Positions 34,626 to 57,696 of a DNA stretch of 64,000 nt are shown here, one piece after another. This stretch comes from Alphaproteobacteria bacterium (GTDB taxonomy: Bacteria; Pseudomonadota; Alphaproteobacteria; Caedimonadales; UBA9215). The position numbers and the translations under genes were made by a program. The notes under the pieces are model-generated. The model was not told the origin of the DNA, did not search any database, and saw only the letters and a list, made by a program, of their open reading frames with translations. The stretch lies in NCBI GenBank assembly GCA_965204765.1, contig CBDBFG010000002.1, positions 73,910-137,909 on the forward strand, read 5' to 3'. Each line of letters starts with the position of its first letter. The first letter of the stretch is position 1.

Positions 34626-34628
34626 GCA

Positions 34629-36912: not shown

Positions 36913-36920
36913 TTTCTTCT

Positions 36921-37064: not shown

Positions 37065-37078
37065 TGCTTCCTCCTACT

Positions 37079-38535: not shown

Positions 38536-38840
38536 CTATTCCTCATAATCAATACATAATTATCAATTTTGCCTATATCTATTGATGTTTAAACTAAAAT
38601 AATCCCTAGACTTCCTCTAATTTTTAAAATAACGATCATAAAAACAAACAAACATCACAAAAATATATGTAAAATTTTACTGAATATAACTTTAATATTC
38701 ACCATACAATAACTTTGTATATAAATAGTTAAAACTATAATATTTGATTTATAATCAAGTAAATATAGCAATATTGACAATATTAATCCCATATATTATT
38801 TGCAGCTCTAATGCATACACAAATCTAAACAACGATTTTA

Positions 38841-39944: not shown

Positions 39945-39961
39945 ATTCTGCTCCTATAATT

Positions 39962-40440
39962 TTATATATTTATATTTGATATTTTGGCTTTATTATTGGC
40001 GGGAAAGGTTACTAAAGAAATTTCTACTAAATCCACTTCTGTTAATAAACGTATACAAGATTCATTACTATTTTTAACAGCCTGTACTACTTATAACCAA
40101 TTGATAACCCATCTATTGCTTTTGATTTCACAAGAGTATATGCTTCTTGTGCTTTTAATAAATCCAGTAATAATCTACCCTTTACTTTTAGCCCTTTATG
40201 GTCTTCTTCGATACTTAACCAAGTACCAATTATATGTTCAGGATTATGTTGCCATAACATCTTAGGCATTTGCTGACATAATTTCCACGATGCAATGGTT
40301 TGCGCAAAAGCACCTCTTACTACTCGATCATTCTGCTGATCAACTTCATCATAAATACTTGCATACCCTTCAAATATTCCTGAATTATCGATACTTTTAT
40401 TTAAACTCACATAGCGTTCTGCACGTTTGAATTCTAGCAT
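39962..40440 (-). pseudogene. HK97-family prohead protease interrupted by a frameshift
   Basis: Frame A (40440-40087) encodes 117 aa ending ...AIDGLSIGYK then TAG. The -1 frame from 40090 continues VVQAVKNSNESCIRLLTEVDLVEISLVTFPANNKAKISNINI to the stop at 39962, i.e. the conserved C-terminal L-x-E-V/I-S-L-V-x-x-P-A-N motif. Confidence 0.8.
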
Positions 40441-41642
40441 TTATCTAAACTATCTCCTCCTACTATTGGTTGATATCCAACTGCTTTTCTTTTTTCATTT
40501 ATTGTTAAAAAATCAGCCTTGGCAATCTTGGCCCATGCTTCCTCTCGTTTAGAAGAAAGTGCTGGTATAGAATCAATATCATAATTTAATCTAATATCTT
40601 CTCCAAACCACTGTGCTAACCAAGCGTTTAACTCATCAGTGACTAAATCTAACAAAGGCAAAATATTATCTTCCCATAAATGTAATCGAGCTTCTTTATA
40701 ATTTGCAAAAGTTGCATCCCCTAAAATACCTATTAAAATTGGAGGGACATTAAATGCCTGAGAAATTTCTCTAGAACTCAAATTTTTACCAGAAATAAAA
40801 TCTAAATCTTTAGGAGACAATCCCATCTCTTGCCAAACAAAATCACCATCAAGTATCATTACGCGACCTGAATTTTTTTCTCCTTCAATGATATTTTTCA
40901 AATCTGTTCTTAATTCAGTTAGTTGCTCTTTGGTTAATGATTCTTTGTATGCACCAGAGGATTTATTGACAATTAACGCTCCAGAAGGCCTACCACCATT
41001 TTGTAACAAAGATAAATTATGACTAGCCACCGCATTATGCTGATCTATTGAACAAGCAGCTGCTTCAATAGGACTCATACCATACCAATCATTTAAGGGA
41101 TTAAATAATTTAATGTGCAATACTCTAGATTTACCACTAGCAAAATTCGCTGGTAACAATTTTGTTCTACCATTGACATTATATTCATATCCAGAAACTA
41201 CACCATTTGAACTTGGCACTATTTTTACTCTATCAGGGCGCAGAACATACATTTCTTTAGGCAAACTAGCAATCTCAGATAGTTCAATATAACTATTACC
41301 CGCCAATAATAAATAAGCAAAAATAGATTCCATAAATGCACTACCAGCCTGATTGAAAGCTGGTCGATGCAATAAATCTAATATTGGATGATTGGTTAGC
41401 TCTTGCTCTCCCTTATACAATCTCCATGGCACACTAGCAGCACTTCTTGCAATCAGATTAACACATCGATAAACTATGACATTTTTATTATATCCATGCT
41501 TAGTTAGTGATTCATAATTTCTAGGAGTCCATATAGCTTTACCAACATTATTATACGCCACCATTGAACCAACCTGACTGGCTTTTACATCTTGATGATT
41601 GTTATTTTTTTTACGTGTAAATAATTGCGCTAAAATGCTCAT
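40434..41642 (-). CDS. HK97-family phage portal protein
   Basis: 402 aa. NDWYGMSPIEAAACSIDQHNAVASHNLSLLQNGGRPSGAL and later ILGD...NYKEARLHLWEDNILP fit the HK97 portal family. Overlaps the protease start. Confidence 0.9.
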   Translation of the reverse strand: MSILAQLFTRKKNNNHQDVKASQVGSMVAYNNVGKAIWTPRNYESLTKHGYNKNVIVYRCVNLIARSAASVPWRLYKGEQELTNHPILDLLHRPAFNQAGSAFMESIFAYLLLAGNSYIELSEIASLPKEMYVLRPDRVKIVPSSNGVVSGYEYNVNGRTKLLPANFASGKSRVLHIKLFNPLNDWYGMSPIEAAACSIDQHNAVASHNLSLLQNGGRPSGALIVNKSSGAYKESLTKEQLTELRTDLKNIIEGEKNSGRVMILDGDFVWQEMGLSPKDLDFISGKNLSSREISQAFNVPPILIGILGDATFANYKEARLHLWEDNILPLLDLVTDELNAWLAQWFGEDIRLNYDIDSIPALSSKREEAWAKIAKADFLTINEKRKAVGYQPIVGGDSLDKC

Positions 41643-41656
41643 AATTTCCTCACAAA

Positions 41657-41678
41657 AAGGCCCGCTATAGCGGGCCTT
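41657..41678 (-). terminator. GC-rich hairpin + U-tract 13 nt upstream of the portal ATG (minus-strand sense)
   Basis: GGCCCGC-tata-GCGGGCC. On the minus strand it is followed by TTTTTGTGAGGAAATTATG (the portal SD and start). Confidence 0.4.
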
Positions 41679-41971: not shown

Positions 41972-42622
41972 ATGATTAAAGTTGATAGTCATTTATATAG
42001 TTATATTATCGAGCACAGCCTACATGAACACCAGGTACTGCAAAATTTAAGAGCCTACACTGAAAACGAAATTAAATCTACAAAACAGGTGTCTCCTGAT
42101 CAGGGACAATTTTTGGCCTTCTTAGTTAAATTAATTAATGCCAAAAATATTCTAGAGCTTGGCACTTTTACCGGATATAGCTGTCTTAGCATGGCACTTG
42201 CCTTACCTGATGATGGCTATATAACAACTTGTGATATTTCAAATAAATACTTATCACTAGCACAACATTACTGGCAACAAGCAAATGTTAGGCACAAAAT
42301 TACGCATCAAATATCTCCTGCTGTGGATTTTTTTCAATTATTATTAGCGCAAAAAAATCCTAAATTATTTGATTTGATATTCCTTGATGCTGATAAAACT
42401 AACCAAGAAAAATATTTTGAATATTCTTTGCAATTACTTCCCAAAGGAGGAATGATGATTATTGATAATACTTTATGGAAAGGCAGGATAATTGATGCAT
42501 CATTTCAAGACAAAAATACCATTGCTATTCGTAATCTGAATAACAAACTATCTATGGATAATCGTATTGATTTATCTATTATTCCAATTGGGGACGGTAT
42601 GACTCTAATCAGAAAAAGATAA
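41972..42622 (+). CDS. class I SAM-dependent O-methyltransferase (caffeoyl-CoA OMT-like, Methyltransf_3)
   Basis: ILELGTFTGYS SAM motif, FDLIFLDADK, GGMMIIDNTLWKG. Confidence 0.85.
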   Translation: MIKVDSHLYSYIIEHSLHEHQVLQNLRAYTENEIKSTKQVSPDQGQFLAFLVKLINAKNILELGTFTGYSCLSMALALPDDGYITTCDISNKYLSLAQHYWQQANVRHKITHQISPAVDFFQLLLAQKNPKLFDLIFLDADKTNQEKYFEYSLQLLPKGGMMIIDNTLWKGRIIDASFQDKNTIAIRNLNNKLSMDNRIDLSIIPIGDGMTLIRKR

Positions 42623-42679
42623 AATACTTAACTATGTTTTAATAATTAAATTATAATCTAATAAAAATAAGGTAGAACT

Positions 42680-43435
42680 ATGTTTAAAAAAATCCCCGTA
42701 ATATTGTCTGTTATCAGCTTTGTAATCCCAAATAGTTACGTACATGCAAAATATAATCACAAAAAAGAAAATAATCTTACATCAGTCGTCACAACACGTA
42801 TGATTAACCATTATGGTACGCAAAAATATATGCATGGTAAATCGCATTGGAAAGCAAACCGCTCTACCATGGGATGGAAAAAATTTGGAGAGGTATGGGG
42901 TTTTAAAAAATGGAATAATGTCAAATTAAAAGCTAAAAATGAACGTGGTAACAAATTCAGCAGATCAATAAACAAATCCAGCTGTCGCAAAAGCGATATT
43001 ACCCTAGTATCTTTTGACGTAATCTGGGCACAAGATAATTTTACTAAACAACTCAAAGTGCAATGCGTGCCCAAAAATACGCAAAATAAATTAAAAAACA
43101 TAGCAAATATTCTTAATAAATCTGAAATAAAAATAGACAGACCAAGTGCATACCTTGGCACATGGAAATTAGCAACAGATAATAACGGTACAAAAAAACT
43201 AAAAAAATTAATTGCGGCTGTACAAAAAGCATTTAATAAAAGAGCACAACTAGGTAAAGATAGCTCTTATAGTGCTGATTTTGACCAATATGATGAAGGA
43301 TTTGATAAATTTAGCAAAACACAACTGGTGCATAACGAAAAATCAGAAAAATATAATCAAATAGCAAAAGCACATAATCGACTGGTAGATGCTAGAAATA
43401 ATTTAGCAGATTATCTAAGCAAGATATATTCATAA
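42680..43435 (+). CDS. secreted lysine-rich protein, paralog of 47466-48659
   Basis: Signal peptide. Shares an N-domain with the 397-aa protein (GEVWGFKKW...SSCRK...LKVQCVPKN versus AEVWGYKKRW...KSCDRK...AKIHCVSNN). Helical C-terminus. Confidence 0.5.
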   Translation: MFKKIPVILSVISFVIPNSYVHAKYNHKKENNLTSVVTTRMINHYGTQKYMHGKSHWKANRSTMGWKKFGEVWGFKKWNNVKLKAKNERGNKFSRSINKSSCRKSDITLVSFDVIWAQDNFTKQLKVQCVPKNTQNKLKNIANILNKSEIKIDRPSAYLGTWKLATDNNGTKKLKKLIAAVQKAFNKRAQLGKDSSYSADFDQYDEGFDKFSKTQLVHNEKSEKYNQIAKAHNRLVDARNNLADYLSKIYS

Positions 43436-43693
43436 ACTACAACACTGACGTTATGAAAAAGCTATATGCTTGCATTGCCCAAAAACTTTAAAACTAAATA
43501 TAAACTCAGAGAACATGTATATCTATATTACATCACTTAAACATGTTCTCTACAATTTATATCACTATTCGTGATATTCTCTATGATCAATATCAACCCA
43601 TCAATAATGAACTCACGCCACAACACAGAAAAAAATTAACATGATATCACCGTAAAGCGGTAATTTTGTATTGGTATTTCAATACGCAACACA

Positions 43694-46648
43694 CTAATGA
43701 GCATCATCCCAATTATCACCAACACCGTGATCTACAGTTAATGGAATTTTTAGATATGCAATTGATTGCATAACATGTTTAATTTTGGGTATTATTTCAT
43801 CAATCACTGATTCATGCACCTCAAAGATTAACTCATCATGCACTTGCAATAATAACCTTGCTTTTTCACCAACCAAAAGCTTTGTATCAGCATAATAAGG
43901 CCCGTAAAAAAAATTTTCGTCATTATACTCTTGTCTAACACTATCGTTTTTTACAGGCATACCAAGCGATACTCCCTCAGGCAATTTAATAGCACCTGTC
44001 TTACTTTTATTATTACTAAATAAATCTAATTGTTTACCTACCGTGACTTGCTCTACGTTTTTTGTTGTTATCTCACCAATATTATATTCCGCCAACAAAC
44101 GTGGCATAGCATTCATAGCCTTCTTAATAATATCTGCTGACGATCCTTGCAGCGGAGCATTAATAGCTTGACGTTCTGCAAAAGTTCTTTGTAAATAACT
44201 ATTAGCATTTATATCTCGTATATAACATTTTCTTCCCCAAATAGTTTCAACATAACCATTTTTACGCGCAAAATCCTTTTGCTCTTCCATATAATCCAGA
44301 ATTCCTGGGTAATGTTGATTATATTTTAGGATATAATCTGATGCTTCCTGTTTAGAAATACCCAATTGCTTACTCAGACCAAAGGCACTAATACCATAAA
44401 TGATCCCAAAATTTATCGCCTTTGCAGCTCTTCTGGTATTATGATCAATATCATGTATAGATTTGCCAAAAACTTCGGCTGCGGTTCTGGCATGAATATC
44501 TTCCTTATTTTTAAAACATTGGATTAATGAATCAATTTGCGCCATATGCGCTAACAAGCGTAGCTCTATTTGTGAATAATCCATAGAAACAAGCTTATAG
44601 TTCTTTTCCGCTATAAATGCCTTCCTAATTGCTCTACCATCACTAGTTTTAATTGGAATATTCTGCATATTGGGATCAGAAGAAGATAACCTACCCGTCA
44701 AAGTATTAAGACCATAACTAGTATGAATTCTATTGTGCGAATCAACCTCGTTACTTAAAGATTCAGTATAGGTACTATTTAATTTAGTATAGTGACGCCA
44801 TGCTATTAACTGTTCAGCTATACTGTATCCCTGCTCTTTTAAAGATTCTAATACTTCAATACCTGTTGCATAAGTCCCTGATTTGTTTTTCTTAGGCTTG
44901 GGCAGATCTAATTTATCAAATAATACTTCACCTAATTGTTTAGGTGAGGCAATATTAAATTCCTCTCCAGATAACTTATATATTTCGCTCGTAATTAATT
45001 TTAGTTTACTATTAAATTCGTTGTGTAGATGATCCAAGTGCTTAACATCAGTCCTGATACCTTTATGCTCCATCAATGCTAATAATTTGATTAGAGGTAA
45101 ATCAACATTCATATATATAGAGTGTGATTTGTTTTCCACCATCCTTTGCTGTAACACGTAATATATCCTAAGGGTATAATCGGCGTCCTCAGCTGCATAC
45201 TGTGTTGCATCACCCAAATCAACTTCATTGAATTGCAACTGTTTATTGCCTGATTTTTTACTTACTTCCTCAAATTTTATCATTTCATGATTACAATAAC
45301 GTAACGCCATTGCATCTAAACTATTACTTAAACGCAAACCATTAATGGTATAAGACATGACCATTGTATCTTCATAAGCATTAATCTCGATACCGTACTT
45401 GAGCATCACTCTCATGTCGTACTTGATATTTTGCCCAATAATTTTTGTTGATGAATCTTCTAAGACCACTTTCAATTCGCTCAAGGCATCATCAAAGTTA
45501 ATTTGATCCCCTGTATCATGCGCTAACGGGACATAACATGCCAACCCTGGTTGCAACGCCAACGAAAAACCTACCAATTCGGCGGTACTAGGATGAAGCG
45601 AAGTAGTCTCCGTATCAAAAGCCACTGTGTGTAGGTATTTTGCCCGCTCTAACCAAGATTTTAATTCATCTATTGATTGTATGGTATAATAATTTTTTTC
45701 TACAGCATTTACTTTCTTAGCGACTATTTCACTTGTTTTACTTTCCAAAGGATTACTATCAGCAATATTTTGTCTATTAATTAAACCTCTTTTCTCAAAG
45801 CGCGAGATTAAATTACTAAATTCTTGCTCTTTCAGGAAATTATACAAAGAATTACTGTCTGGCTGCTCTAACACCAAATCATTCACATTTAGTGGCAGAG
45901 GCACTTCATCACATAAAGTAACTAGTTTTTTAGACACTATCGCATCATTACTGTGATTAATAAGTCTTTCTCTTCTCTTAGGTTGTGTAATTTCAGCAAT
46001 ATTATCTAATAAATCTTCCAAACTACCGTATTTTAGTATAAGTTCTGCTGCGGTTTTGACTCCTATTCCTGGCACACCTGGCACATTATCAGAACTATCT
46101 CCTGCTAATGCTTGCACATCAATTACCTGCTCTGGCTGCACACCAAATTTCTTTTCGACTTCTGCAAAATGAATAAGACTATTTTTTATCGGATCAAGCA
46201 TTTTAATATTATTGTTGATCAACTGCATTAAGTCCTTGTCTGAACTAACAATAATAACATTATATCCCAGTTCATCAGCTTGTTTAGCATAGGTTGCAAT
46301 AATATCATCTGCTTCATACCCTTTCATCTCTACCGCTGGAATATTAAATGCTTTACAAGCTTGACGAATCAAACCAAATTGCGGAATTAAATCTTCCGGA
46401 GTTTCAGCGCGGTTGGCTTTATAGGCTGGATATATATCATGGCGATAATTTTGCCTAGCGCTATCAAATATTACGGCAATTTTACTAATATGATTTTGAT
46501 CCAGCAATTTTAACATTATATTACAAAAACCTAATACAGCGCCAACGGGAGTACCATCTTCTCGCGTTAATGGAGGCAAAGCGTGATAGGCTCTAAAAAT
46601 AAACCCTGATCCATCTATTAGATATATATTTTTCTCTAGATTACTCAT
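43694..46648 (-). CDS. polA: DNA polymerase I
   Basis: 5'-nuclease N-terminus (LIDGSGFIFRAYHA), 3'-5' exo motif (AFDTETTSL), polymerase motifs A (DYSQIELR), B (RRAAKAINFGIIYG) and C (QVHDEL). Confidence 0.95.
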   Translation of the reverse strand: MSNLEKNIYLIDGSGFIFRAYHALPPLTREDGTPVGAVLGFCNIMLKLLDQNHISKIAVIFDSARQNYRHDIYPAYKANRAETPEDLIPQFGLIRQACKAFNIPAVEMKGYEADDIIATYAKQADELGYNVIIVSSDKDLMQLINNNIKMLDPIKNSLIHFAEVEKKFGVQPEQVIDVQALAGDSSDNVPGVPGIGVKTAAELILKYGSLEDLLDNIAEITQPKRRERLINHSNDAIVSKKLVTLCDEVPLPLNVNDLVLEQPDSNSLYNFLKEQEFSNLISRFEKRGLINRQNIADSNPLESKTSEIVAKKVNAVEKNYYTIQSIDELKSWLERAKYLHTVAFDTETTSLHPSTAELVGFSLALQPGLACYVPLAHDTGDQINFDDALSELKVVLEDSSTKIIGQNIKYDMRVMLKYGIEINAYEDTMVMSYTINGLRLSNSLDAMALRYCNHEMIKFEEVSKKSGNKQLQFNEVDLGDATQYAAEDADYTLRIYYVLQQRMVENKSHSIYMNVDLPLIKLLALMEHKGIRTDVKHLDHLHNEFNSKLKLITSEIYKLSGEEFNIASPKQLGEVLFDKLDLPKPKKNKSGTYATGIEVLESLKEQGYSIAEQLIAWRHYTKLNSTYTESLSNEVDSHNRIHTSYGLNTLTGRLSSSDPNMQNIPIKTSDGRAIRKAFIAEKNYKLVSMDYSQIELRLLAHMAQIDSLIQCFKNKEDIHARTAAEVFGKSIHDIDHNTRRAAKAINFGIIYGISAFGLSKQLGISKQEASDYILKYNQHYPGILDYMEEQKDFARKNGYVETIWGRKCYIRDINANSYLQRTFAERQAINAPLQGSSADIIKKAMNAMPRLLAEYNIGEITTKNVEQVTVGKQLDLFSNNKSKTGAIKLPEGVSLGMPVKNDSVRQEYNDENFFYGPYYADTKLLVGEKARLLLQVHDELIFEVHESVIDEIIPKIKHVMQSIAYLKIPLTVDHGVGDNWDDAH

Positions 46649-46711
46649 AATATTGATTTCACAAACTTTTTTATTAATGTAGTATGTTACTGGCAGTATA
46701 TAAATAGAAAA

Positions 46712-47266
46712 ATGTTTGAAAGTGATAAATCAGTACCGTTATGCATTGACCTTGATGGCACTTTGGTCAAAGAAGATACATCTATCCTACTCCTGCGCAA
46801 ATTTATTAAACAAAACCCATTTAATATCTTTAAAGTATTATTTTGGTTTGTTAGTAGCTTTAATAATGCACATGTAAAGGCAAAACTAGCCAATAACTGT
46901 ACTCTAGACATTACAAAACTTACTTTTTCTTCATTGATAAAAAATTTAATTAATCAAGCTGCACAACAGGAACGTAAAATTTATCTTGTAACTGGCTCTA
47001 ATCAAATCATTGCAAAACAAATTACCAAGGAAATAAAAGAATTTACTAGCTATTTTGCTAGTGACGACAAAATAAACCTTGTTGGTAATACAAAAGCAAG
47101 CAATTTAAATATAAAAATAGGCAAAAATGAATATATTTATGCCGGCAATAGCAAGCAAGACATACCTGTTTGGGACAATTCTTTTGGAGTAATAGTGTCA
47201 CCATTTGCCTCAAAAAAAATTGTACAATTCGCACGAAAAAAGTATAAAAACATCATTATTCTATAG
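46712..47266 (+). CDS. HAD-superfamily hydrolase-like protein
   Basis: DxDxT motif in LCIDLDGTLV. Size and pattern fit a HAD fold, but the specific subfamily is unclear. Confidence 0.5.
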   Translation: MFESDKSVPLCIDLDGTLVKEDTSILLLRKFIKQNPFNIFKVLFWFVSSFNNAHVKAKLANNCTLDITKLTFSSLIKNLINQAAQQERKIYLVTGSNQIIAKQITKEIKEFTSYFASDDKINLVGNTKASNLNIKIGKNEYIYAGNSKQDIPVWDNSFGVIVSPFASKKIVQFARKKYKNIIIL

Positions 47267-47465
47267 CGTAGCTTAAAATATTTTGTCCATTTTAAAATTG
47301 ACATCATGACTAAACGAGTTAATCACATACACAGACAAATATTAAGATCTAAGACCGGTATTGAAAAACAAAATTGCTTATAAAACACATGGCCATCAAA
47401 AAATACACAACAGACAAGGACTGCATAATCAATGCAAAAACATACCGCTATTTTTACCTAAGTAA

Positions 47466-48659
47466 TTAAAGCTTTTCTAACAAAGCAAAATCATCATCAC
47501 CTAGGCTATCAATAATATCGCTATCTTCTATAAATTGCATTATGTCCCCTTCTTTAAATTTTGCATCGGACAATTTTTTAAAGAACTTACCTCTGAACTT
47601 CTTATCTTTATCTAGCTTGCCTATTAATGAATTCTTTGGAGAAGTTTTTTGAATAAAACTTTCTATCTCCATTAAGCCTTCTATTTTATTGTCTAAAACC
47701 TTCTTAAATCCTTTTAGGCCATTTTCTGCATCTGCTAAAGATTTACGCTTATCCTTAATATCATTCAACTTGCTGTTTACTTCTTTATCACCAGCATCCA
47801 AATCCTTCAGTAAACCTTTAACTTTCTTTATAAATTTGAACTTTTTTAATAGCGACTTACTACGCTTAATATCGTATTGCGTTTGTTGCAAAAATTTCTC
47901 TACCCCGCGTAACAGCACTCTACCTTCTGCAACCAAGTCATACCCTTCATTCATCAATGTTGATAGTTTGTCTGCATTCTGCCTTACTACTAACATTAAT
48001 CCACTTTCGCTGTTGGACAAATCTCTCATAAATTTATTAGATATATTGTTTTGCTCTTTTTCTAATTTCTTTTGAAATTTTTTCATCTTTTCTTCGTACG
48101 CCTTACCTCTGCTTTCCCAATAATTACTGCTCTCTTCTATTTTCTTTAAGCGATCTATCGAACCTAATCGACCAGCTAACTTAGTTTGATTATAATTAGT
48201 CTTTGGTCCTGTATATCTCTCTCGGTAGCTGTTATTTATCAGCCAATTATTTAGATCGTTATTGCTAACACAATGAATCTTGGCGTTACATTTATCACCG
48301 CGTTTACCATGTATTTGTACAACCGTAACTTTCCTATCACAGCTTTTACGCTTTAACCTTATGTGACAGTATTTTTTGTGTTTTATCTTACCTTTTTTGG
48401 CCTTTGTTACTTTATCAATATTGATTTTAATTTTACCCCATCTCTTTTTATAACCCCATACTTCTGCAGGTTTATGACGACCATCAAAACTATTAGTACT
48501 TGACCACACATGTTCTGGCATTTTTTCATCAAAAGCTTTTGAGGGCACCACCACAATATTAGTTTTCTTACTGCCCGTAAATTCGGCACAAGCAGCATTA
48601 ACCATCACTAGCAATGATAGTGTTTTGACAATATTGATTTTGAACATAGCTTTTATCAC
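47466..48659 (-). CDS. secreted lysine-rich protein with a long coiled-coil C-terminus, paralog of 42680-43435
   Basis: Signal peptide (LSLLVMVNAACA), shared EVWGYKK/Cys-pattern N-domain, K/E-rich heptad-like C-terminal half. Confidence 0.5.
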   Translation of the reverse strand: MIKAMFKINIVKTLSLLVMVNAACAEFTGSKKTNIVVVPSKAFDEKMPEHVWSSTNSFDGRHKPAEVWGYKKRWGKIKINIDKVTKAKKGKIKHKKYCHIRLKRKSCDRKVTVVQIHGKRGDKCNAKIHCVSNNDLNNWLINNSYRERYTGPKTNYNQTKLAGRLGSIDRLKKIEESSNYWESRGKAYEEKMKKFQKKLEKEQNNISNKFMRDLSNSESGLMLVVRQNADKLSTLMNEGYDLVAEGRVLLRGVEKFLQQTQYDIKRSKSLLKKFKFIKKVKGLLKDLDAGDKEVNSKLNDIKDKRKSLADAENGLKGFKKVLDNKIEGLMEIESFIQKTSPKNSLIGKLDKDKKFRGKFFKKLSDAKFKEGDIMQFIEDSDIIDSLGDDDFALLEKL

Positions 48660-48817
48660 AATCTGTTATATTGGTTTATTATCAAATATAAAAATTAATA
48701 ATATATTAAGATAAATTATTCTAAAAAACCACCTATTACATTAATATCGCTAGGTATACATTACTTTTATTACTTATAATTTTTACCTGGAATACTACCC
48801 ACATCAAAAAGGTAAAC

Positions 48818-48894
48818 GGCAAAAGGCAAAAGGCAAAAGGCAAAAGGCAAAAGGCAAAAGGCAAAAGGCAAAAGGCAAAAGGCAAAAGGCAAAA
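48818..48894. repeat. perfect heptanucleotide tandem repeat (GGCAAAA) x11
   Basis: Counted directly: 11 identical 7-nt units. Lies in the divergent intergenic region, 80 nt upstream of the nusB ATG and 159 nt upstream of the 47466-48659 start. Confidence 0.9.
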
Positions 48895-48973
48895 ATATTA
48901 TGCGCCACATATTTACCTATTGCATTATTGATATTTTTTATATACTTTCGCCTATTATAAACATTTCACAGCC

Positions 48974-49441
48974 ATGAGTACCGAAAATACTACTGCTACC
49001 ACTAAACGAGGCACACGTTTTCAACGTCACCGTGTTGCTAGAATAATGGCTATTCAAGCTATTTACGAAGCCAATCATAGCAAACAAGATTACCAAATCA
49101 TAACAGACAGGTTTTTAACCTATAACTTTTATAACCATACCCACCCTGTTGTACCAGAAAAAGAATTATTTATTCATGTTCTAAACGCTCTTGAAGCAAA
49201 TAAAGCAAGCATAGAACTGGTAATAACAAACTCTACCGTGCAAGGATGGCAATTAAAAGATATTGATCCAATAGTTATCTCTATTCTACAAGCTGCACTA
49301 GCAGAGTTAAAACAACATTATAACCAAACTGCAGTTTCTATTATTATTAGTGAATATATCGAAATATGTAAGGGCTTCTGCGAAACTAAGGAAGCAAATT
49401 ACGTACATAAAGTACTAGATAATTATATTGCAAGCCTATAA
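48974..49441 (+). CDS. nusB: transcription antitermination factor NusB
   Basis: RHRVARIMAIQAIYE N-terminal pattern and C-terminal ISEYIEICKGF...YVHKVLDN, 155 aa. Confidence 0.85.
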   Translation: MSTENTTATTKRGTRFQRHRVARIMAIQAIYEANHSKQDYQIITDRFLTYNFYNHTHPVVPEKELFIHVLNALEANKASIELVITNSTVQGWQLKDIDPIVISILQAALAELKQHYNQTAVSIIISEYIEICKGFCETKEANYVHKVLDNYIASL

Positions 49442-49550
49442 TTACACCTATTATACTTTTTTATCTTTAAAACTAGCATACAGTTAGAAAAATACAGTAG
49501 AAAATAAAGCAAAAATGCTATAGTTTTACTACAACATTTATGGACATAAC

Positions 49551-50861
49551 ATGCGCAGAACATCCTGTTTTCTACCGACATTAAAAGAGAATCCTAAAGA
49601 AGCACAAATATCTTCTCATCGTTTAATGTTACGTGCCGGCATGATTAATCAATCCAGCGCAGGAATATATTCATGGTTACCAATTGGCAATTTAGTGTTA
49701 CAAAACATCGCCAATATTGTTAGACAAGAACTAAATAACATAGGCGCACAAGAAATCATTATTCCAACCATACAGTCTTCTGATCTATGGCTTGAAAGTA
49801 ATCGATATGAATCTTATGGCAAAGAAATGCTGACTATACAAGATCGTCATAATCGTGATCTACTATACACTCCTACTGCCGAAGAAGCTGTTAATAATCT
49901 AGCCCGTCAATATATGAAAAGTTATAAAGATTTACCGTGTATAATGTATCAAATTAACTGGAAATTTCGTGATGAAATCAGGCCAAGATTTGGAATAATG
50001 CGTGGCCGCGAGTTTTTAATGAAAGACGCATATTCTTTAGACATAGATGAACCTAATGCTCGTCAAACCTATTACAAGATGTTGCACACATATGTTAAAA
50101 TCTTTCATCGCATGGGGCTAACAGCAATACCTCTGCGCGCGGAAACTGGACCAATTGGCGGTGATTTGAGCCATGAATTTCATATTTTATCAAAAACTGG
50201 TGAAAGTGGCTTATATTATGATAGTAAATTAGAAGAAATTATAGAAAATCCAAACAAGCAGCTGGATATTGATAAGTTATTAAGTTTGTATGCCTCAACA
50301 GAGGACTTACATGATGAAAATAATCCCCTAGCACAATCCTGTCAGGTACTAAAACAAGCCAGAGGTATAGAAATTGGACATATATTCTATTATGGCACCA
50401 AATACTCTGATGCATTAAATATTTCTCTTGCAGGAAAAAATAACGATAAAGTCATTCCTCATGGCGGCTGTTATGGCATAGGAGTATCACGCCTGGTAGG
50501 CGCAATAATAGAAGCCAACCACGACGAAAATGGCATTATATGGCCACATAACATTAGTCCTTTTAAGATTGGAATGATTAATATTAAACAACAAGACGAA
50601 GAAAGTACAAAAATTTGTGAAGAGCTATATAGTAAACTGACCAACAATGATATTAGTGTACTGTATGATGATCGACATGAAAGATCAGGCGTCAAATTTG
50701 CAGAAATGGATTTAATTGGCGTACCATGGCAAATAAAAGTAGGACCAAAAGGAGTTAGTGATAACACCGTAGAACTTAAAAATCGCCGTACAAATGAGAC
50801 CCAAACCCTAAGTATAGGAAAAGTGATGGATACAATAAATAAAATATTCCAATACAAATAA
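49551..50861 (+). CDS. proS: prolyl-tRNA synthetase (short, INS-less type)
   Basis: Class II motifs (FRDEIRPRFGIMRGREFLMKDAYS; GCYGIGVSRL), 436 aa. Confidence 0.93.
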   Translation: MRRTSCFLPTLKENPKEAQISSHRLMLRAGMINQSSAGIYSWLPIGNLVLQNIANIVRQELNNIGAQEIIIPTIQSSDLWLESNRYESYGKEMLTIQDRHNRDLLYTPTAEEAVNNLARQYMKSYKDLPCIMYQINWKFRDEIRPRFGIMRGREFLMKDAYSLDIDEPNARQTYYKMLHTYVKIFHRMGLTAIPLRAETGPIGGDLSHEFHILSKTGESGLYYDSKLEEIIENPNKQLDIDKLLSLYASTEDLHDENNPLAQSCQVLKQARGIEIGHIFYYGTKYSDALNISLAGKNNDKVIPHGGCYGIGVSRLVGAIIEANHDENGIIWPHNISPFKIGMINIKQQDEESTKICEELYSKLTNNDISVLYDDRHERSGVKFAEMDLIGVPWQIKVGPKGVSDNTVELKNRRTNETQTLSIGKVMDTINKIFQYK

Positions 50862-50872
50862 ATAGCAAATAT

Positions 50873-52117
50873 ATGTTTTTCTCACGATTTGAACGAACTA
50901 TAGCACTACGTTATCTTAGCCCCGCCAAAAAAGAAGGGGCTATTTCCCTTATTGCCTTCTTTTCTTTTATAGGTATTAGCCTGGGAGTGGCTGCACTAAT
51001 AATCGTCATGTCCGTCATGAATGGCTTTCGACAAGAGTTATTAAATAGCATACTAGGCTTTAAAGGTCATATATGCTTTTATTCTAAAACAGGCAGCGGT
51101 ATCGACAAGCACAATGACATTACCGCTGCACTAAACAAGATAAATCTTGTAAAATCCAGCACACCTTTAATTGAAGAACAATCTATAATTGCAATTAATT
51201 CAAGATATACCGGCGCACTGATTAATGGCATAAGCAAAGAAAGTTTGCAAAACAAGTCTATCATTGCCAATAATATAATCCAAGGCAGTATCCATAATTT
51301 TCAAGGTGCTAAAGCAATTATTGGATATAAAATGGCTATAAACAACGGATTAAAAATTGGGGACACCATCTCTATAATATCACCTAATGGAATTAATAGT
51401 GCATTTGGTACTGTGCCTAAAATACGCCCTCTGGTAATAGCGGCTATTTTTAAAGTCGGTATGAATGATTATGATAAGGGAGTAGCGTTTATTCCATTGG
51501 ATCAAGCACAAAGTTTTTTTAACTACAAAAAGACAGTAAACAGCATAGAAATATTTTCTCATAATCCAGAGCAAATTTATAAATTAAAAAAAATATTATT
51601 GCAAAAATTTCACCAATTCAGAATTATTGATTGGCAACAGGCCAACAGCGTATTTTTTAACTCACTAAAGATAGAAAAGAATGTAATGTTTATAATTTTA
51701 ACCTTAATTATATTAGTTGCAGCTTTGAATATAATTTCTTCCCTGGTCATGCTGGTCAAAGATAAAGCAAAAAATATCGCTATTTTGCGCACTATGGGTG
51801 CTAATAGAAATTCTATTATTAAAATATTTTTTCTTACTGGCTTTATCATTGGTACCACTGGAATAATTGTTGGGTTACTGTTTGGTCTGTTGTTTGTTTA
51901 TAACATCGAAACAATAAGGCAATACCTAGAATCATTTTCCGGTGCCACATTATTTAGTGATGAAATATATTTCTTATCTCAATTACCGGCAAAAGTAGAT
52001 ACAATGGAAGTAACAGCAATCATTACAATTTCCATATTGCTAGTGTTTATCTCATCAATAATTCCGGCTTGGCGTGCAGCTAAACTTAATCCAGTTGAGG
52101 TTTTGCGCTATGAATAA
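50873..52117 (+). CDS. lipoprotein-releasing system permease LolC/E family
   Basis: FERTIALRYL N-terminus, MacB-like periplasmic domain, C-terminal FtsX-type TM bundle. Followed by lolD. Confidence 0.85.
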   Translation: MFFSRFERTIALRYLSPAKKEGAISLIAFFSFIGISLGVAALIIVMSVMNGFRQELLNSILGFKGHICFYSKTGSGIDKHNDITAALNKINLVKSSTPLIEEQSIIAINSRYTGALINGISKESLQNKSIIANNIIQGSIHNFQGAKAIIGYKMAINNGLKIGDTISIISPNGINSAFGTVPKIRPLVIAAIFKVGMNDYDKGVAFIPLDQAQSFFNYKKTVNSIEIFSHNPEQIYKLKKILLQKFHQFRIIDWQQANSVFFNSLKIEKNVMFIILTLIILVAALNIISSLVMLVKDKAKNIAILRTMGANRNSIIKIFFLTGFIIGTTGIIVGLLFGLLFVYNIETIRQYLESFSGATLFSDEIYFLSQLPAKVDTMEVTAIITISILLVFISSIIPAWRAAKLNPVEVLRYE

Positions 52118-52790
52118 ACAATCAATCGCAAGAGTATACCAGCTGCATAAATCATTTACACAAGGTAGTAAAAAATTAAAGATACTCAATGGAGTAAATA
52201 TAGAGTTATTTAGCGGTGAAATAGTAGCCTTACTTGGCAGTTCAGGCTCAGGAAAATCTACTTTACTACAGCTAATAGGGCTACTTGATTCTTTTGATAA
52301 GGGAGAAATTATTATTAATTTGCAACAAACCTCTTTATTATCTTCTATACAAAGGAATCAATTAAGGCAAACTACACTAGGTTTTGTTTATCAATTTCAT
52401 CATCTGTTACCAGAATTTACTGTGCTAGAAAATGTTATGATGCCACTGTTGATTGCTGGAGAAAACAGTAATATAGCCTCTACTAAAGCGCTAGAAATCC
52501 TTGCGACTATGAATATGAGTAAAAGATCAAACCACCGCCCATCACAATTATCAGGTGGTGAACAACAAAGAGTAGCGATTGCCAGAGCAATGATAAATAA
52601 TCCTCAAATATTATTGGCTGATGAACCAACTGGTAATCTAGACACAAAGAATGCTGAAATAGTATTCAATGAAATGTTGAAAATGGTTAAAACACATAAT
52701 ACCACGGCATTAATTGCTACCCATGATTTAAATCTTGCAAAAAAAGCAGATCGAACTATAGTGTTGGACCAAGGTATAATAATTACTTGA
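52110..52790 (+). CDS. lolD: lipoprotein-releasing system ATP-binding protein
   Basis: Walker A GSSGSGKST, signature LSGGEQQR, Walker B LLADEPTGNLD. The ATG at 52110 overlaps the lolC/E stop. Confidence 0.88.
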   Translation: MNKQSIARVYQLHKSFTQGSKKLKILNGVNIELFSGEIVALLGSSGSGKSTLLQLIGLLDSFDKGEIIINLQQTSLLSSIQRNQLRQTTLGFVYQFHHLLPEFTVLENVMMPLLIAGENSNIASTKALEILATMNMSKRSNHRPSQLSGGEQQRVAIARAMINNPQILLADEPTGNLDTKNAEIVFNEMLKMVKTHNTTALIATHDLNLAKKADRTIVLDQGIIIT

Positions 52791-52855
52791 TTTACTTTTA
52801 GTAAGTTTTAATGTATCAAACAGCAATATTAAGACAAAAAGGCAAAATATAATTC

Positions 52856-53764
52856 ATGAAAAATATAATCAATATTTGCGTATGTACCTTTACTATAATA
52901 TTGCTATACAGCTGTGCACCAACAAGATATTTTTACTCTTCTGGTATGTTTGGCAGCACCCCAGCATCCAAAAAACATGCAAAGAGAGGATATAACAAAC
53001 CATATGTTATCAAAAATAGACGATATTATCCACGTAAACACTATGAATATTCTCAAGTTGGTATGGCATCGTATTATGGTGGAACAGATATCTTCCACGG
53101 ACGTGCAACTTCTACCGGAGAAACATTTAGCAAACATGGTTTAACTGCAGCACATAAAACCTTACCGCTGCCATCTATTGCTAGAGTAACTAACTTAAAA
53201 AACGGACGTAGCGTTGTTGTCAGAATCAATGATAGAGGTCCTTTTGCTAAAAATCGTATAATAGACGTCTCGGAATATGTCGCAAAATTACTAGGTTTTC
53301 ATCATGATGGAGTGGCTAAAGTACATGTTGAATGCTTGGTAAAAGAAAGCATGCTACTTGCCACCAGATATAAACCCAAAAGTTGCGGACCCAGAAACGT
53401 ACATTGTTACAATTTTTATAATAGGATATTTCACTCTGTATTCCCTCGATCTTACAGCTATACATCGCCATATATCAAACAGCCTAGCTCAAGAATATTA
53501 AATGCCAAGCTACGACCTAGACGCGCTACGATAAAAAAAACATATATTCAAACAGGGACATTCAATTCTACCAAACGAGCGCAACAGTTAAAAAGAGTAA
53601 TTTATCAAAAACTAAGGTTACCCAGTAAAGTAGATAGTTACACTAAGAATAGAAAAAAATATTATCGCGTGCTTATTGGCCCGATCAAACCAGGATATGA
53701 GCAAAGAATAGCCGCGAAACTTAAAGAAATCAAAATTAAAGATGCGTTTATCATTAAAAAGTAA
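52856..53764 (+). CDS. rlpA: septal-ring lytic transglycosylase RlpA family protein with a C-terminal SPOR domain
   Basis: Lipoprotein-like N-terminus (LLYSC), DPBB domain (GMASYYGG...HGRATSTGE...AAHKTLPLPS...RINDRGPF), SPOR-like C-terminus (YIQTGTF...YRVLIGP). Confidence 0.85.
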   Translation: MKNIINICVCTFTIILLYSCAPTRYFYSSGMFGSTPASKKHAKRGYNKPYVIKNRRYYPRKHYEYSQVGMASYYGGTDIFHGRATSTGETFSKHGLTAAHKTLPLPSIARVTNLKNGRSVVVRINDRGPFAKNRIIDVSEYVAKLLGFHHDGVAKVHVECLVKESMLLATRYKPKSCGPRNVHCYNFYNRIFHSVFPRSYSYTSPYIKQPSSRILNAKLRPRRATIKKTYIQTGTFNSTKRAQQLKRVIYQKLRLPSKVDSYTKNRKKYYRVLIGPIKPGYEQRIAAKLKEIKIKDAFIIKK

Positions 53765-54518
53765 CAAGAACACACGAGGATCAATTTTGATTTTTCTTAG
53801 CAGAGCAGTATACGCAATCGTTAGCATATGTTTATCACACAATATTAACCAAGCTTCCCATTGTTATTATGAGCAACAATACAGTGATACGACAAAGGCA
53901 ACTTATGCCTTTTGTCCAGACGATAATCATATGAAAGATCTGACCTGTGCAGTGGAAACGCCAATGTCACAACAAGACATTGATGAATCAAGACGACTGG
54001 TGCAACATTTAGGTAGAATCAACGCATATGATATATTATCACATACCAAACCTGTTTATACCTTAATGTTGCCACTAGGGATGAGAAATGCCTTCATAGA
54101 TATAATCCTAAATATGAAACGATCTTTTGCTATACAATTGATTGAAGAACTAAAACTATTGTTTACCGCTTTAAACATTCATAGTATTAGCCTACACGCA
54201 AAAGAAACCATTTTATTCATACAATCCATAGCACCATTGCATTCAGAAAATAGAAAAAACGTATTTCACAACATGCTAAAGTTAAATGATTACTTACCAG
54301 AGTGTAATAGAGAATTCAACATAATGAGTATTGGACAAACTTTAGTACCAATCAATATGTGTGAACGTGATGAGTTTATCAATACAATCCAAGTTGTCTT
54401 TACTGGCTTTGTACAAGATTATACACAAATAGCACAAATAATCCCTACACTGTACCATAACGGCAATCGTTCATATACAATAGGTCTTTGGACAAACTAT
54501 CACACAATCGCAGTCTAG
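53742..54518 (+). CDS. hypothetical secreted/membrane-anchored helical-repeat protein
   Basis: Hydrophobic N-terminus. Iterated roughly 17-19-aa helices with an L-x-x-x-(E/N)-R-x-x-F/L pattern (LHAKETILFIQS, LHSENRKNVFHNM, ECNREFNIM, CERDEFINTI). Confidence 0.4.
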   Translation: MRLSLKSNKNTRGSILIFLSRAVYAIVSICLSHNINQASHCYYEQQYSDTTKATYAFCPDDNHMKDLTCAVETPMSQQDIDESRRLVQHLGRINAYDILSHTKPVYTLMLPLGMRNAFIDIILNMKRSFAIQLIEELKLLFTALNIHSISLHAKETILFIQSIAPLHSENRKNVFHNMLKLNDYLPECNREFNIMSIGQTLVPINMCERDEFINTIQVVFTGFVQDYTQIAQIIPTLYHNGNRSYTIGLWTNYHTIAV

Positions 54519-54768
54519 CAGGCATGTTTTCTAATGCCCAAGCGATGATATATTTTCTACAGTCAGTACATATGGAAAATATGCAATCATAAATATAGTA
54601 TTGGCAAATATTACTGCAAATAACACAGTATTTGATAAATAGTATTGTTAATGGTAACTTGCTTTTATTATATCAGCGTAGGTTATGTATATTTTTATCA
54701 TTTTATTCAACCTAATCGTTACTATTACATAACAGTGTACCGCTCTAGACGCAGAGCAATCATTTTCC

Positions 54769-55568
54769 TTGGCCATCAGTACCGGAAGAAATTTTGCGCG
54801 AATCAAAACTCCACCTATAGCAAATATAAGTATTGATCAAAATACCAAAATACTAGCAGAGAGAAGGTTAAAAGCACTACTAGCGAATTATAGCGCAACA
54901 GATTTTACTTACCTGCAATCTAAAATGTGGCGCAACCCATGTGCTAAGGTAATAGCTACTGGAACAACCGCAGCTGTGGCTGCTTGGGGTACCAGTGTCG
55001 CATTTCTACCAATGGCTGTTGGATTAGGGTTAAGTTGGGGAGCAGAAGAATTAATCAAAAGAAAATCACGACTGTGGAGATTAACGGCAAGTGGTTGTAC
55101 CATTACTGGTAGCACAATTACAATTGCAAGTAGTTGCGCTAAAGAAACAGCAACTGAATGCGTTGTATCTATGCCTTGCTTAGTAGCTATTCCATTTACC
55201 GCTGCTAGTGGCGCTATCTTTACCCGAGGACAAGTAGTTGCGCTAAAGAAACAGCAACTGAATGCGTTGTATCTATGCCTTGCTTAGTAGCTATTCCATT
55301 TACCGCTGCTAGTGGCGCTATCTTTACCCGAGGATTGGTTGCACATTTTACCGATCAAAATACAATCTGTAATGAACATAAGAAAACTGTCGTAGACGTA
55401 CTAAGCAACTATATAGCTGCTCATCATTCAGAACGTGATAGAACGAGATTAACTAGATTATTAGATGGTAAATTAGCTAATATTGACGATGACAGGATCA
55501 ACAAAACAAATATCAATCTAGCTACTTGGGTTTGGAATGTATTACATCCTGATAATCAACAGCAATAA
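54769..55568 (+). pseudogene. membrane protein gene disrupted by a 104-bp tandem duplication
   Basis: ORFs 54769-55287 and 55275-55568 become one 231-codon frame if one duplication copy is removed. TM-like segments (TAAVAAWGTSVAFLPMAVGLGLSWGA). The only start in frame at 54769 is TTG. Confidence 0.6.
55127..55334. repeat. exact 104-bp direct tandem duplication (2 copies)
   Basis: 55127-55230 and 55231-55334 are identical on base-by-base reading (caagtagttgcgctaaagaaacagc...ctttacccgagga). Confidence 0.95.
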
Positions 55569-55628
55569 TAATAGGAATTTATTGACCATGGTGTAATTTA
55601 CTTTTACAATGGTGATAAGGAGTAAAAG

Positions 55629-56099
55629 ATGCCCAAGTTGTTAATATTTATGTTACTTTGCTGCAATGCTTTATCGCTATAGGCGTATTTCCTAGAAAGT
55701 TTGCGCTTCCCCGATGATTCTGAATCATCACGTAACAGCTTTTGCAGGTTTTCTTATGCGATCAGACTGCATCTTGCCGAAAATGATGATGAGGTAAGAA
55801 AACACGTAGCACAAGGTAATAAATATTTCAATAGGTACACACGTACCGATTCGCCATATGATGGCGCGCTTACTTTACATGAATATATTCAAGCAGCAGA
55901 ATTAGGGCATGTTGGATCATTAAGATTTATTGGCCTCATGTTTAAAAAAGGCACAATGGGTATTTCAAAACAATGGTTTCGAGGATCGACGTATTTAAAA
56001 AAAGCAGATGAATTAGACCAAAGTCACCTCTACTCCACCAGATTAACGCCCAGAGGTTATTCACCTTTACTTAGTTACGACCATAAAAAGCAAGATTAG
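55629..56099 (+). pseudogene. Sel1-repeat protein gene with an in-frame TAG after the signal peptide
   Basis: ATG at 55629 encodes MPKLLIFMLLCCNALSL then TAG (55680-55682). The same frame continues into ORF 55701-56099, which has a Sel1-like unit (AAELGHVGSLRFIGLMFKKG). Confidence 0.45.
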
Positions 56100-56117: not shown

Positions 56118-57437
56118 TTACTCAATAGAGAATATCGCAGGAATATTTTTCACAGTTTTAGGGAGTAATAATTCTGTCACTGCCCAAACCAACGCATCTA
56201 ATCTATCCGGTGATTTTGCAGTTTTGCCAGGAACATAGTCAATCATTTGTTGCTCTAATATAGCTAAATCTCCATTGGACAAATGCTTTACTTTATTTCT
56301 TTGATATAGGCATAATACTGGCTCTGCTCGCAAAACTTTACCACGACTGGCATATACCCCTTTAAATGGAATACTATGGTCTATTGAGCGAATAATACTT
56401 TCAACTAAATCGCCGCCCTGATTATTTTCTGCTACTATACAATCCGCATTATAATTATGATATTCATGGATTGCTTTTCTGGCCCATTCTGCTGGACCAT
56501 ATCTACCACTTATATCCTTTAGCACATACACCGTATCACCATTATCCTTACCGGCCACTATAATACCAGTCTCATCACTTTTCACACCAGAAGTAACCGC
56601 AGGATCAATAGCGATGATTATTCGTGATAACTCAGGTATCTCTTTATTAATCACTTGTGCTTGATTGATTAAAGTGCGAGACCACAATGCCCCGGTATTA
56701 TCATTTAATATTTTCCCTTCAATTTCTTGTTGCCCCAAATTAGTACCAGAATATTTATTTTTTAAATAAGCAATAAACTGCGGAGATAAATTTTCTTGGT
56801 TATCAAATGTTGATCCTCGTGTAACATATACATCACCACTTTTTTCAGCCTCCAACAACTCTTGCAGCAATTTATTAGGCCTTGGAGTTGTCGTAATTAT
56901 TGCCCTGGGACATTTGCCTAATCTTAGGGAAAAATTCAACTGATCCCATACCGCTTTATCATTATTAAACTTAGCTAATTCATCTATCCAAGCAAAATCA
57001 AATTGTGGCCCACGTAATTGTTCATAATTTTCCGCACTAAATATTGTTGCAATACTACCATTAGACCAGGTTAAACGACGTTTAGATGGTTCAAATACTG
57101 GCCTTTCCTTGTCTGGGTACACTGCCAATAATCCACTCGAACCTTCGATCATTACATCGCGCACTTCTGTCTCACTTTGTCCGATTAAAGCAATTCTCTT
57201 GATAGCGTTAGTACTAACGAATTTTTTTATTGTTTCCGCCCCAGTCCTGGTCTTGCCAAACCCTCTACCGGCTAAAATCAGCCACACTCTCCAATTACCT
57301 GGCGGTATTTTCTGGCTAGGACGCGCGTATTTATCCCAATTATATTTTGCAATTAATTCTTGTTTAATATTGATTAGCAATGATATTTTACTACGTAATA
57401 TATGAAGTAATTTTCTATAATTCTTTGATCTTTTCAT
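56118..57437 (-). CDS. phage terminase large subunit, RcGTA g2-like
   Basis: WRVWLILAGRGFGKTRTGAETIKKF matches the Walker-A region of GTA-type TerL (W-x-x-W-L-x-x-G-G-R-G-x-G-K-T-R-x-G-A-E). Walker B-like FAWIDE. C-terminal nuclease region (IIAIDPA...DETGI...CIVAENNQGGD...DRLDALVWA). Confidence 0.88.
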   Translation of the reverse strand: MKRSKNYRKLLHILRSKISLLINIKQELIAKYNWDKYARPSQKIPPGNWRVWLILAGRGFGKTRTGAETIKKFVSTNAIKRIALIGQSETEVRDVMIEGSSGLLAVYPDKERPVFEPSKRRLTWSNGSIATIFSAENYEQLRGPQFDFAWIDELAKFNNDKAVWDQLNFSLRLGKCPRAIITTTPRPNKLLQELLEAEKSGDVYVTRGSTFDNQENLSPQFIAYLKNKYSGTNLGQQEIEGKILNDNTGALWSRTLINQAQVINKEIPELSRIIIAIDPAVTSGVKSDETGIIVAGKDNGDTVYVLKDISGRYGPAEWARKAIHEYHNYNADCIVAENNQGGDLVESIIRSIDHSIPFKGVYASRGKVLRAEPVLCLYQRNKVKHLSNGDLAILEQQMIDYVPGKTAKSPDRLDALVWAVTELLLPKTVKNIPAIFSIE

Positions 57438-57619
57438 TGCCTCACCTTTTCAATACGGCAAGCATGACTATAAAAAACTACATAAACAAATATTTATCTA
57501 AAATAGACAACTATCGTAGCATAGAAATTATGGGTTATAATATTTAAGGACAATAGAAACAACTGGAGTACTCACAAGAAACAAAACTGTGTTCAAATAG
57601 TTATACAAAATATGTAAAA

Positions 57620-57696
57620 TGGTGGACCCTGTAGGACTCGAACCTACGACATCACCGTTATGAGCGGTGTGTTCTAACCAACTGAACTAAGGGTCC
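57620..57696 (-). tRNA. tRNA with CAT anticodon (Met, or lysidine-type Ile2)
   Basis: Cloverleaf: acceptor GGACCCT/AGGGTCC, anticodon loop CTCATAA, T-loop GGTTCGAGTCC, encoded CCA. The acceptor GGaCCCU resembles E. coli tRNA-Ile2 (GGCCCCU) as I recall it. It is not initiator-like. Confidence 0.9.

Follow-up and report, generated by a model that had tools for sequence, protein, structure and literature searches.

The locus considered here raises a simple question. A large terminase gene (terL) lies among housekeeping genes and beside a tRNA: does it belong with the GTA-like head-tail genes found further along the same strand, or is it something else? The stretch of DNA that was analysed (the window, 64,000 nucleotides) is C2:73910-137909 of a genome of 1,191,160 bp (G000), and the host is a reduced Holosporales-type alphaproteobacterium. 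A sequence-only reading of the window had offered two explanations, namely that one element was split by rearrangement while its terminase remained intact, or that there are two unrelated prophage remnants.

The best explanation is that terL is the g2-type terminase of a reduced, vertically inherited RcGTA-like GTA of Holosporales-type bacteria. It became unlinked from g3 and the head-tail cluster in the ancestor of a clade, in which g1 was lost or has diverged, and it has been a singlet since then, presumably still with a role in packaging. We put the probability of this reading at roughly 0.8. The features on which the argument is built are collected in Table 1.

Table 1. Positions of terL, the head-tail cluster and neighbouring features (window coordinates unless stated otherwise)
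Feature	Position	Strand	Remarks
terL (g2-type large terminase)	56118-57437	-	439 aa, ATG start, single genome copy
Main RcGTA-like head-tail-lysis cluster	32109-41642	-	Portal to cell-wall hydrolase, plus 178-aa ORF
Portal	40434-41642	-	Phage_portal, E 7.6e-82; heads the cluster
Intrinsic-terminator-like hairpin	41654-41677	-	GC-rich stem of 8-9 bp, loop UAUA, U5
Housekeeping block between portal and terL	41972-53764	.	O-methyltransferase to rlpA
Orphan or decaying lineage-specific ORFs at the 3′ end of terL	53742-56099	+	None with a homologue beside terL in relatives
terL upstream region	57438-57619	-	182 bp, Shine-Dalgarno-like GGTGAGG
tRNA, anticodon CAT	57620-57696	-	G1:C72 pair, not initiator
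cI-like repressor, divergent from 204-aa + 164-aa operon	G000:C4:518635-520834		Outside the window

The terminase gene

The terL ORF contains no internal stops, in line with its first description as undisrupted, and all its motif residues are kept. Pfam matches are Terminase_6N (PF03237) at residues 53-258 (E 1.9e-28) and Terminase_6C (PF17289) at residues 275-421 (E 3.5e-14), and large-terminase families of PHROG are matched as well. In an alignment of TerL with nine relatives, the Walker A motif (G57-R-G-F-G-K-T63), the Walker B motif with its catalytic glutamate (W150-x-D152-E153), the coupling motif TTT(P) (T182-T-T-P185) and the acidic residues of the nuclease (D278, E337, D411 and D414) are all invariant. 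The ATPase of T4 gp17 aligns with that of TerL across the motifs SRQLGKT, IYIDE and TTT. From its sequence, TerL is therefore predicted to have the two domains of the Terminase_6 (T4-like/HK97-associated) family, an N-terminal ASCE ATPase and a C-terminal RNase-H-like nuclease. It is the only terL match in the genome (four contigs), which likewise has a single portal gene. The composition of terL (GC 0.367, GC3 0.27) is typical of this genome, which has 35% GC, and the best named matches to the protein are from Caedimonas, Paracaedimonas, Odyssella, Paracaedibacter and Holosporales bacterium UBA9215.

The Walker A context WLILAGRGFGKTRTGAE had been taken as a signature of GTA terminases. This does not hold, since true phages carry it too: the pattern WLILAGRGFGKTR[ST]G is present in Siphoviridae ctuI7215, Desulfofustis phage MD02 and Brevundimonas phage Strzyga. 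Phage TerLs are 44-49% identical overall to the TerL of the window, which makes them as close to it as the canonical GTA TerLs of other alphaproteobacteria. Canonical GTA and phage TerLs intermix outside the clade to which this TerL belongs, and the label "GTA-type" therefore rests on context and phylogeny rather than on sequence alone.

Two of the head genes have an unusually low GC3, the portal (0.199, 2nd percentile) and the capsid (0.236, 9th percentile), both in window 38841-41642 on the minus strand. The percentiles are among the ORFs of at least 250 aa in the genome, and terL is average on the same scale.

Arrangement of the window

The head-tail cluster encodes the portal, a short prohead protease, the capsid, an adaptor, a head completion protein, a cell-wall hydrolase and the ORF of 178 aa. 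The protease ORF (window 40087-40440, minus strand) is only 117 aa long and aligns with the S78/HK97 protease profile over the first two thirds of that profile. In relatives the tblastn match is likewise short (about 100 aa), though the ORFs can be longer (179 aa in G013), and it is concluded that the conserved part of the protease is about 100 residues across the clade.

Measured from the stop of terL to the start of the portal gene, the distance is 14,475 bp, with terL upstream and on the same strand and about 13 ORFs between them. The spacing and orientation are thus as reported earlier, and so is the presence of rlpA, lolCD, proS, nusB and polA in the interval. The full set of interval genes comprises an O-methyltransferase, a 251-aa orphan, polA, a HAD hydrolase, a 397-aa orphan, nusB, proS, a lolC-like gene (LolC/E-like permease), a lolD-like ATPase and rlpA. 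Between the gene for the 397-aa orphan and nusB, the spacer contains about 12 tandem copies of the 7-bp unit AAAAGGC (window 48807-48895).

On its 3′ side, terL is flanked by a 258-aa ORF, a broken membrane ORF and a Sel1-like ORF. The membrane ORF is broken by an exact tandem duplication of 104 bp (55127-55334). On the other side, the 182 bp that separate terL from the tRNA are free of any same-strand ORF. This tRNA, which we take to resemble tRNA-Ile2 (lysidine type), is one of three CAT tRNAs in the genome.

A lone terminase in such a place could be what is left of an unrelated prophage that integrated at tRNA(CAT), with an ancestry unlike that of the head genes. The gene adjoins the 3′ end of the tRNA and an islet of orphan genes, which would fit such an origin, as would the identity of 44-49% reached by phage TerLs. 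However, the 3′ end of the tRNA (25 nt, up to three mismatches) occurs only once in the window, so that there is no att duplicate, and a search near terL found no integrase or other phage gene, the neighbours being Sel1-like and orphan ORFs and lon. The locus thus lacks the att repeat and the flanking integrase or phage genes of a tRNA-integrated prophage remnant. Rfam, scanned around terL and the portal leader, returned nothing except the tRNA. Neither is the adjacency conserved, because relatives have different tRNAs near terL or none. We therefore reject tRNA(CAT) as an integration site, and with it the significance earlier attached to its position; it is a mere neighbour of terL and not part of the element.

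Separation of terL across relatives

terL and the portal gene were located in 60 related genomes, and the flanks of both genes were then compared. In all 22 related genomes whose TerL groups with that of the window, terL is unlinked from the portal, and no neighbouring portal accompanies terL in any genome of the window's order or of five further families. The portal-to-hydrolase cluster of these split genomes is syntenic, minus terL. Where both genes are on one contig, their distance is 12.7 kb in G013 (on opposite strands), about 20 kb in G021 and 816 kb in G008. In five more distant alphaproteobacteria (G032, G047, G043, G026 and G034), a g1-like ORF, terL and the portal gene are contiguous, and terL (g2) of the window is not immediately upstream of the portal (g3), as it is in RcGTA-like clusters.

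The genes that flank terL are housekeeping genes, and they vary between lineages. In relatives, terL is preceded by ApaG and a PBP-like protein, not by TerS. One set of genes recurs, however: in G013 and G021, two members of another family, terL and the portal likewise have proS-lolC-lolD between them, although orientations differ. Each of the four genomes of genus g4 has proS about 2 kb from terL, and in another genus the distance is 57-63 kb. The recurrence of proS-lolCD in G013 and G021, together with the closeness of proS to terL in genus g4, suggests with moderate confidence that terL and the portal first came apart locally, inside a terL / proS-lolCD / portal neighbourhood. With similar confidence, it suggests that later rearrangements took terL further off in most lineages.

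The same comparison bears on whether the distance seen here could stem from faulty assembly, or from a recent rearrangement in this genome alone. With an assembly of four contigs a wrong join might be suspected; but there are no Ns between 41.0 and 58.4 kb, the cumulative GC skew falls smoothly across the interval, and G013 and G021 show the terL / proS-lolCD / portal neighbourhood again, on contigs of 1.72 Mb and 179 kb respectively. Since unlinking is universal in the clade, a private rearrangement fits no better. We consider either event highly improbable.

What remains of the suggestion that one element was split by rearrangement is the single element with its intact terminase. The split itself is not a rearrangement of this genome, because it maps to the stem of a clade that comprises the window's order and at least five further families. 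The separation is most simply placed on that single stem branch. In the history that we favour, terL would have been separated from g3 (the portal gene) and the remaining head-tail cluster in the ancestor of the clade, where a recognisable g1 would also have been lost or have diverged past detection. From then on terL would have been a single-copy singlet with an upstream region of its own, moved among housekeeping genes by rearrangement, and in this genome it would have come to lie 14.5 kb upstream of the portal, on the far side of proS-lolCD.

Not every relative has an intact terL. None was found in the assemblies of G002 (93% complete) and G017 (92%), even with a TerL profile at E<=1, although their portal-to-hydrolase clusters are complete; this is either genuine loss or missing sequence. 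In G021, terL is in two frames with an overlap of 8 nt and a junction free of homopolymers (10613-11801 of the fetched locus), and in G029 it is in two pieces on two contigs. In both, the pieces meet near residue 250, in the linker between ATPase and nuclease. The cluster may be able to persist without an intact terL, as G002, G017 and G021 would indicate, or these MAGs may be incomplete or erroneous.

The surroundings of the cluster itself have also changed. polA and the HAD hydrolase gene adjoin the tail end of the GTA cluster in G001 and G002, and lie upstream of the portal in the window (43694-47266); in G017 only the HAD gene is seen, at the portal end. The polA/HAD neighbourhood is kept, and the GTA cluster is inverted or moved relative to it.

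Small terminase and regulators

The absence of a small terminase or g1-like ORF between TerL and the tRNA had been pointed out before, and it extends beyond these 182 bp. A g1/TerS profile, made from the upstream ORFs of the five canonical clusters, matches only its five source genomes and finds nothing in G000 or the other split genomes to which it was applied; the profile is shallow and its sensitivity low. A small terminase upstream of g2, as in RcGTA-like clusters, was thus not detected with this profile. The unlinking and the loss of a recognisable small terminase may go back to one and the same event in the ancestor.

Similarly, DUF6456 (PF20057), which marks the GafA/GafZ-type regulators, has no match in G000 at E<=0.1, while the Caulobacter control matches, so that no direct activator of the GafA/GafYZ type was detected. 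With neither a TerS/g1 homologue nor a DUF6456 match, two parts that model GTAs need are unaccounted for here.

One candidate for TerS came from outside the window. An operon encoding proteins of 204 and 164 aa was found through a third conserved site of the motif TGTCTTTTT, which is described below, and was dropped as TerS when hhalign to g1 gave probabilities of 0.2 and 0.1. The 204-aa protein has an N-terminal HTH-like motif by eye and no Pfam match, and the 164-aa protein has an AT-hook-like GRP motif. The divergent cI-like repressor is 268 aa long in G000, and its orthologue in G001 contains HTH_3 and Peptidase_S24. The arrangement of repressor, operon and TGTCTTTTT motif is conserved in G001, G002, G004 and G005, and the locus may be a relic phage-type switch.

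Ancestry and selection

A maximum likelihood tree of TerL was calculated for 28 taxa with LG+C20. It places the window inside its own taxonomic family (f1) with support of 99/97 and recovers the other families, and in the portal tree, which also recovers the families, the window again falls in f1, with support of 100/99. A second TerL tree included the eight best phage TerLs. In this tree all 23 singlet TerLs form one clade (100/99), with none of the phage TerLs and none of the TerLs of the adjacent type within it, while phage and canonical GTA TerLs are intermixed outside. The phylogenies of TerL and portal are congruent and track the hosts. A comparison of TerL with the head genes had been suggested as a way to tell whether they share a donor lineage; made here with the portal, it gives no sign of different ancestries. 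The family-tracking trees, the phage-free clade, the lack of an att repeat and the native composition all indicate that inheritance has been vertical and host-tracking, as in RcGTA-like GTAs.

These results also settle the matter of the prophage remnant. The nearest relatives of this TerL are singlet TerLs from the same bacterial family in a clade without phages, its composition is native, and its adjacency to the tRNA is not conserved. We regard the integration of an unrelated prophage as most improbable, and the proposal of two unrelated remnants is rejected given the congruent trees of TerL and portal.

Selection on singlet terL was estimated from pairs of relatives whose dS is unsaturated. 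dN/dS is 0.078 for G001-G005 (dS 0.67) and 0.114 for G006-G016 (dS 0.30), which shows that singlet terL is under purifying selection in these relatives. In the lineage of the window itself the synonymous sites are saturated (pS 0.83-0.89), and pN is 0.27-0.30. Identity to orthologues within the family is 58% for TerL (67th percentile) and 66% for the portal (82nd percentile), among 49 gene pairs between this genome and its family relatives with a median identity of 50.6%, a sample that is biased towards the loci fetched. The ORFs that abut terL are orphan or broken, unlike the conserved terL. The congruent, host-tracking phylogenies and the purifying selection on singlet terL support the view that a single element was split.

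It could nevertheless be that the GTA is being lost, and that terL is a non-functional relic which simply has not decayed so far. Decay is visible next to it, in the frameshift caused by the 104-bp duplication and in a Sel1-like ORF behind an in-frame stop, and neither TerS nor the known regulators were found; in other Holosporaceae, TEM showed no GTA particles (PMC9254644). A relic would hardly be expected to show a dN/dS of about 0.1 in several singlet lineages, however, nor to keep all of its catalytic residues invariant across lineages in which dS is saturated, nor to be retained in genomes down to 0.5 Mb. This makes a relic very unlikely.

A conserved gene need not have kept its original partners, and terL might have been exapted by the host as an independent ATPase/nuclease, with a role in, for example, DNA repair or defence, that no longer works with the capsid cluster. 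Its unlinking throughout the clade without conserved neighbours is in line with this, and so is the failure to find TerS with the weak g1 profile. The 0.5-Mb genome G041 keeps a conserved terL (48% identity) and has only a weak portal match (29%); G022 and G054 also show terL without portal, but are just 67% and 84% complete. Against this, nearly every reasonably complete genome of the clade has both terL and the portal, the trees of the two are congruent, and the ATPase and nuclease centres are both kept, as expected for packaging. We know of no stand-alone function for this TerL family, which also counts against exaptation. On balance we consider it unlikely.

The preferred reading, of a terminase that still serves the GTA, leads to the following picture of its function. 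TerL would be made from its own transcription unit, possibly also by read-through from the upstream tRNA. It would dock on the portal vertex of procapsids produced from the 32109-41642 cluster, and would translocate and cut DNA by means of its conserved ATPase and RNase-H-like nuclease centres. That both centres have been retained favours particles that still package DNA.

Comparison with known GTAs and phages

The separation of a GTA terminase is not new. George et al. (2022, Genome Biol Evol 14:evac099, PMC9254644) described a Holosporaceae GTA whose terminase is encoded away from the main cluster, and singlet GTA terminases occur in Rickettsiales and Rhodospirillales (PMC9254644). They also reported purifying selection on the Holosporaceae GTA head genes, and transcripts of most GTA genes were detected in two of the Holosporaceae endosymbionts studied (PMC9254644). 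The window has the same overall organization as the GTA of Cytomitobacter and Nesciobacter (Holosporaceae; PMC9254644), in that a reduced genome of the Holosporales type has a single syntenic capsid-portal cluster minus terL, and one unlinked terL. The strong purifying selection on the head genes of the Holosporaceae GTA (PMC9254644) is a further point of likeness. The differences are that the Holosporaceae endosymbionts have genomes of about 0.6 Mb whereas this one is 1.19 Mb and from an uncultured family, and that terL has here stayed within 14.5 kb of the portal, in the same orientation. The pattern of separation is thus old, common to the whole bacterial group and already published, and the window is a well-supported new example of it. 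What is added here is the placing of the unlinking on one ancestral branch, the congruent trees of TerL and portal, the singlet clade free of phages, and the finding of no g1 in the split genomes searched.

RcGTA of Rhodobacter capsulatus, and the related elements of other alphaproteobacteria, provide the reference arrangement. Its g2 (rcc01683) is of the same Terminase_6N/6C family with the same motifs, the TerL of the window being 44-49% identical to TerLs of the adjacent type, and the HK97-type portal, protease, capsid and adaptor are shared as downstream partners. Unlike the g1-g2-g3 order of RcGTA, g2 does not adjoin g3 here, and the searches for g1/TerS and for a GafA-type DUF6456 regulator found neither.

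For Rickettsiales, dispersed sets of GTA genes and singlet terminases have been described (Lang & Beatty, 2007; Shakya et al., 2017; Christensen & Serbus, 2020; all as cited in PMC9254644). These obligate intracellular alphaproteobacteria likewise have scattered GTA homologues, and a terminase on its own was noted there too, but in the present case only terL is detached and the remainder forms one cluster. Shakya et al. (2017) merged regions separated by fewer than 15 ORFs, and by this rule the terL and the cluster of the window would count as one region.

Among phages, the TerLs of Microcystis phage Mae-JY09, Roseobacter phage CRP-6 and Brevundimonas phage Strzyga resemble that of the window, with 44-49% identity and an identical Walker A context. 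They differ in that the phage terL belongs to the genome of a replicating phage and is mostly beside the small terminase or the portal gene (in those examined), and in that none of them is in the singlet clade.

Endosymbiont-type bacteria discard nearly all dispensable genes. That a DNA-packaging motor has stayed intact and strongly constrained, even in genomes as small as 0.5 Mb, argues that the GTA-like particles probably still handle DNA. This bears on the question put by George et al. (2022), whether such particles serve gene transfer, the storage of cargo or some action on the host. For annotation, terL would belong functionally with the 32109-41642 cluster, there is no prophage scar at the tRNA, and the arrangement is inherited and not an assembly error.

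Upstream regions of terL and the portal gene

In the window the motif TGTCTATTTT is found at 57509-57500 (minus strand), at position -72 from terL, with a TTG 20 nt from the motif start. An exact TGTCTTTTT occurs at -78 upstream of terL in three relatives from the family. In genus g2, TGTCTTTTT with a TTG about 20 nt from the motif start precedes both terL and the portal gene; the motif is exact in all of eight regions checked, and a ninth occurrence precedes the G005 portal. The window has versions with one mismatch, at -72 from terL and at -283 from the portal. Only five intergenic matches were found in G000, two of which are the terL and portal sites, using a relaxed pattern that had been tuned on these sites.

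We considered whether TGTCTTTTT might be a co-regulation element of the GTA, and rejected this: it also precedes secG-pyrG and an ORF of 157-169 aa in relatives, its genome-wide count in G000 is no higher than in shuffles, and the pattern was tuned. It is therefore read as a general promoter-upstream (UP-like) element, with no evidence of a GTA regulon.

The hairpin listed in Table 1 ends 11 nt before the start codon of the portal gene and has a fold z-score of -3.4. In family f1, the portal gene is preceded by a terminator hairpin and U-run just before the ribosome-binding site. The stem sequences differ among G000, G001, G002 and G004, and the hairpin is retained. A sigma-70-like promoter (TTGAC[TA]-N16/17-TATATT) lies about 40-60 nt upstream of the hairpin in G001, G002 and G004; no clear promoter was identified upstream of it in the window. 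No upstream gene ends at the hairpin in G000, G001 and G004, and in G002 a same-strand ORF of 584 aa ends about 100 nt upstream of it.

By its position, the hairpin looks like an attenuator or antitermination gate, for which the antitermination by GafZ in Caulobacter (PMC11150451) can serve as an analogy only. One might go further and propose that the clade has a working DNA-packaging GTA with two transcription units under separate control and no recognisable TerS or GafA-type activator. In this scheme terL would have its own promoter with a short leader and, in family f1, the head-tail operon would be gated by a terminator, conserved in structure and not in sequence, between the sigma-70-like promoter and the portal start. 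We hold this proposal to be unlikely. If the terminator-gated reading were true, particle production would need an antitermination factor, analogous in its logic and not homologous to GafZ of Caulobacter or Q of lambdoid phages.
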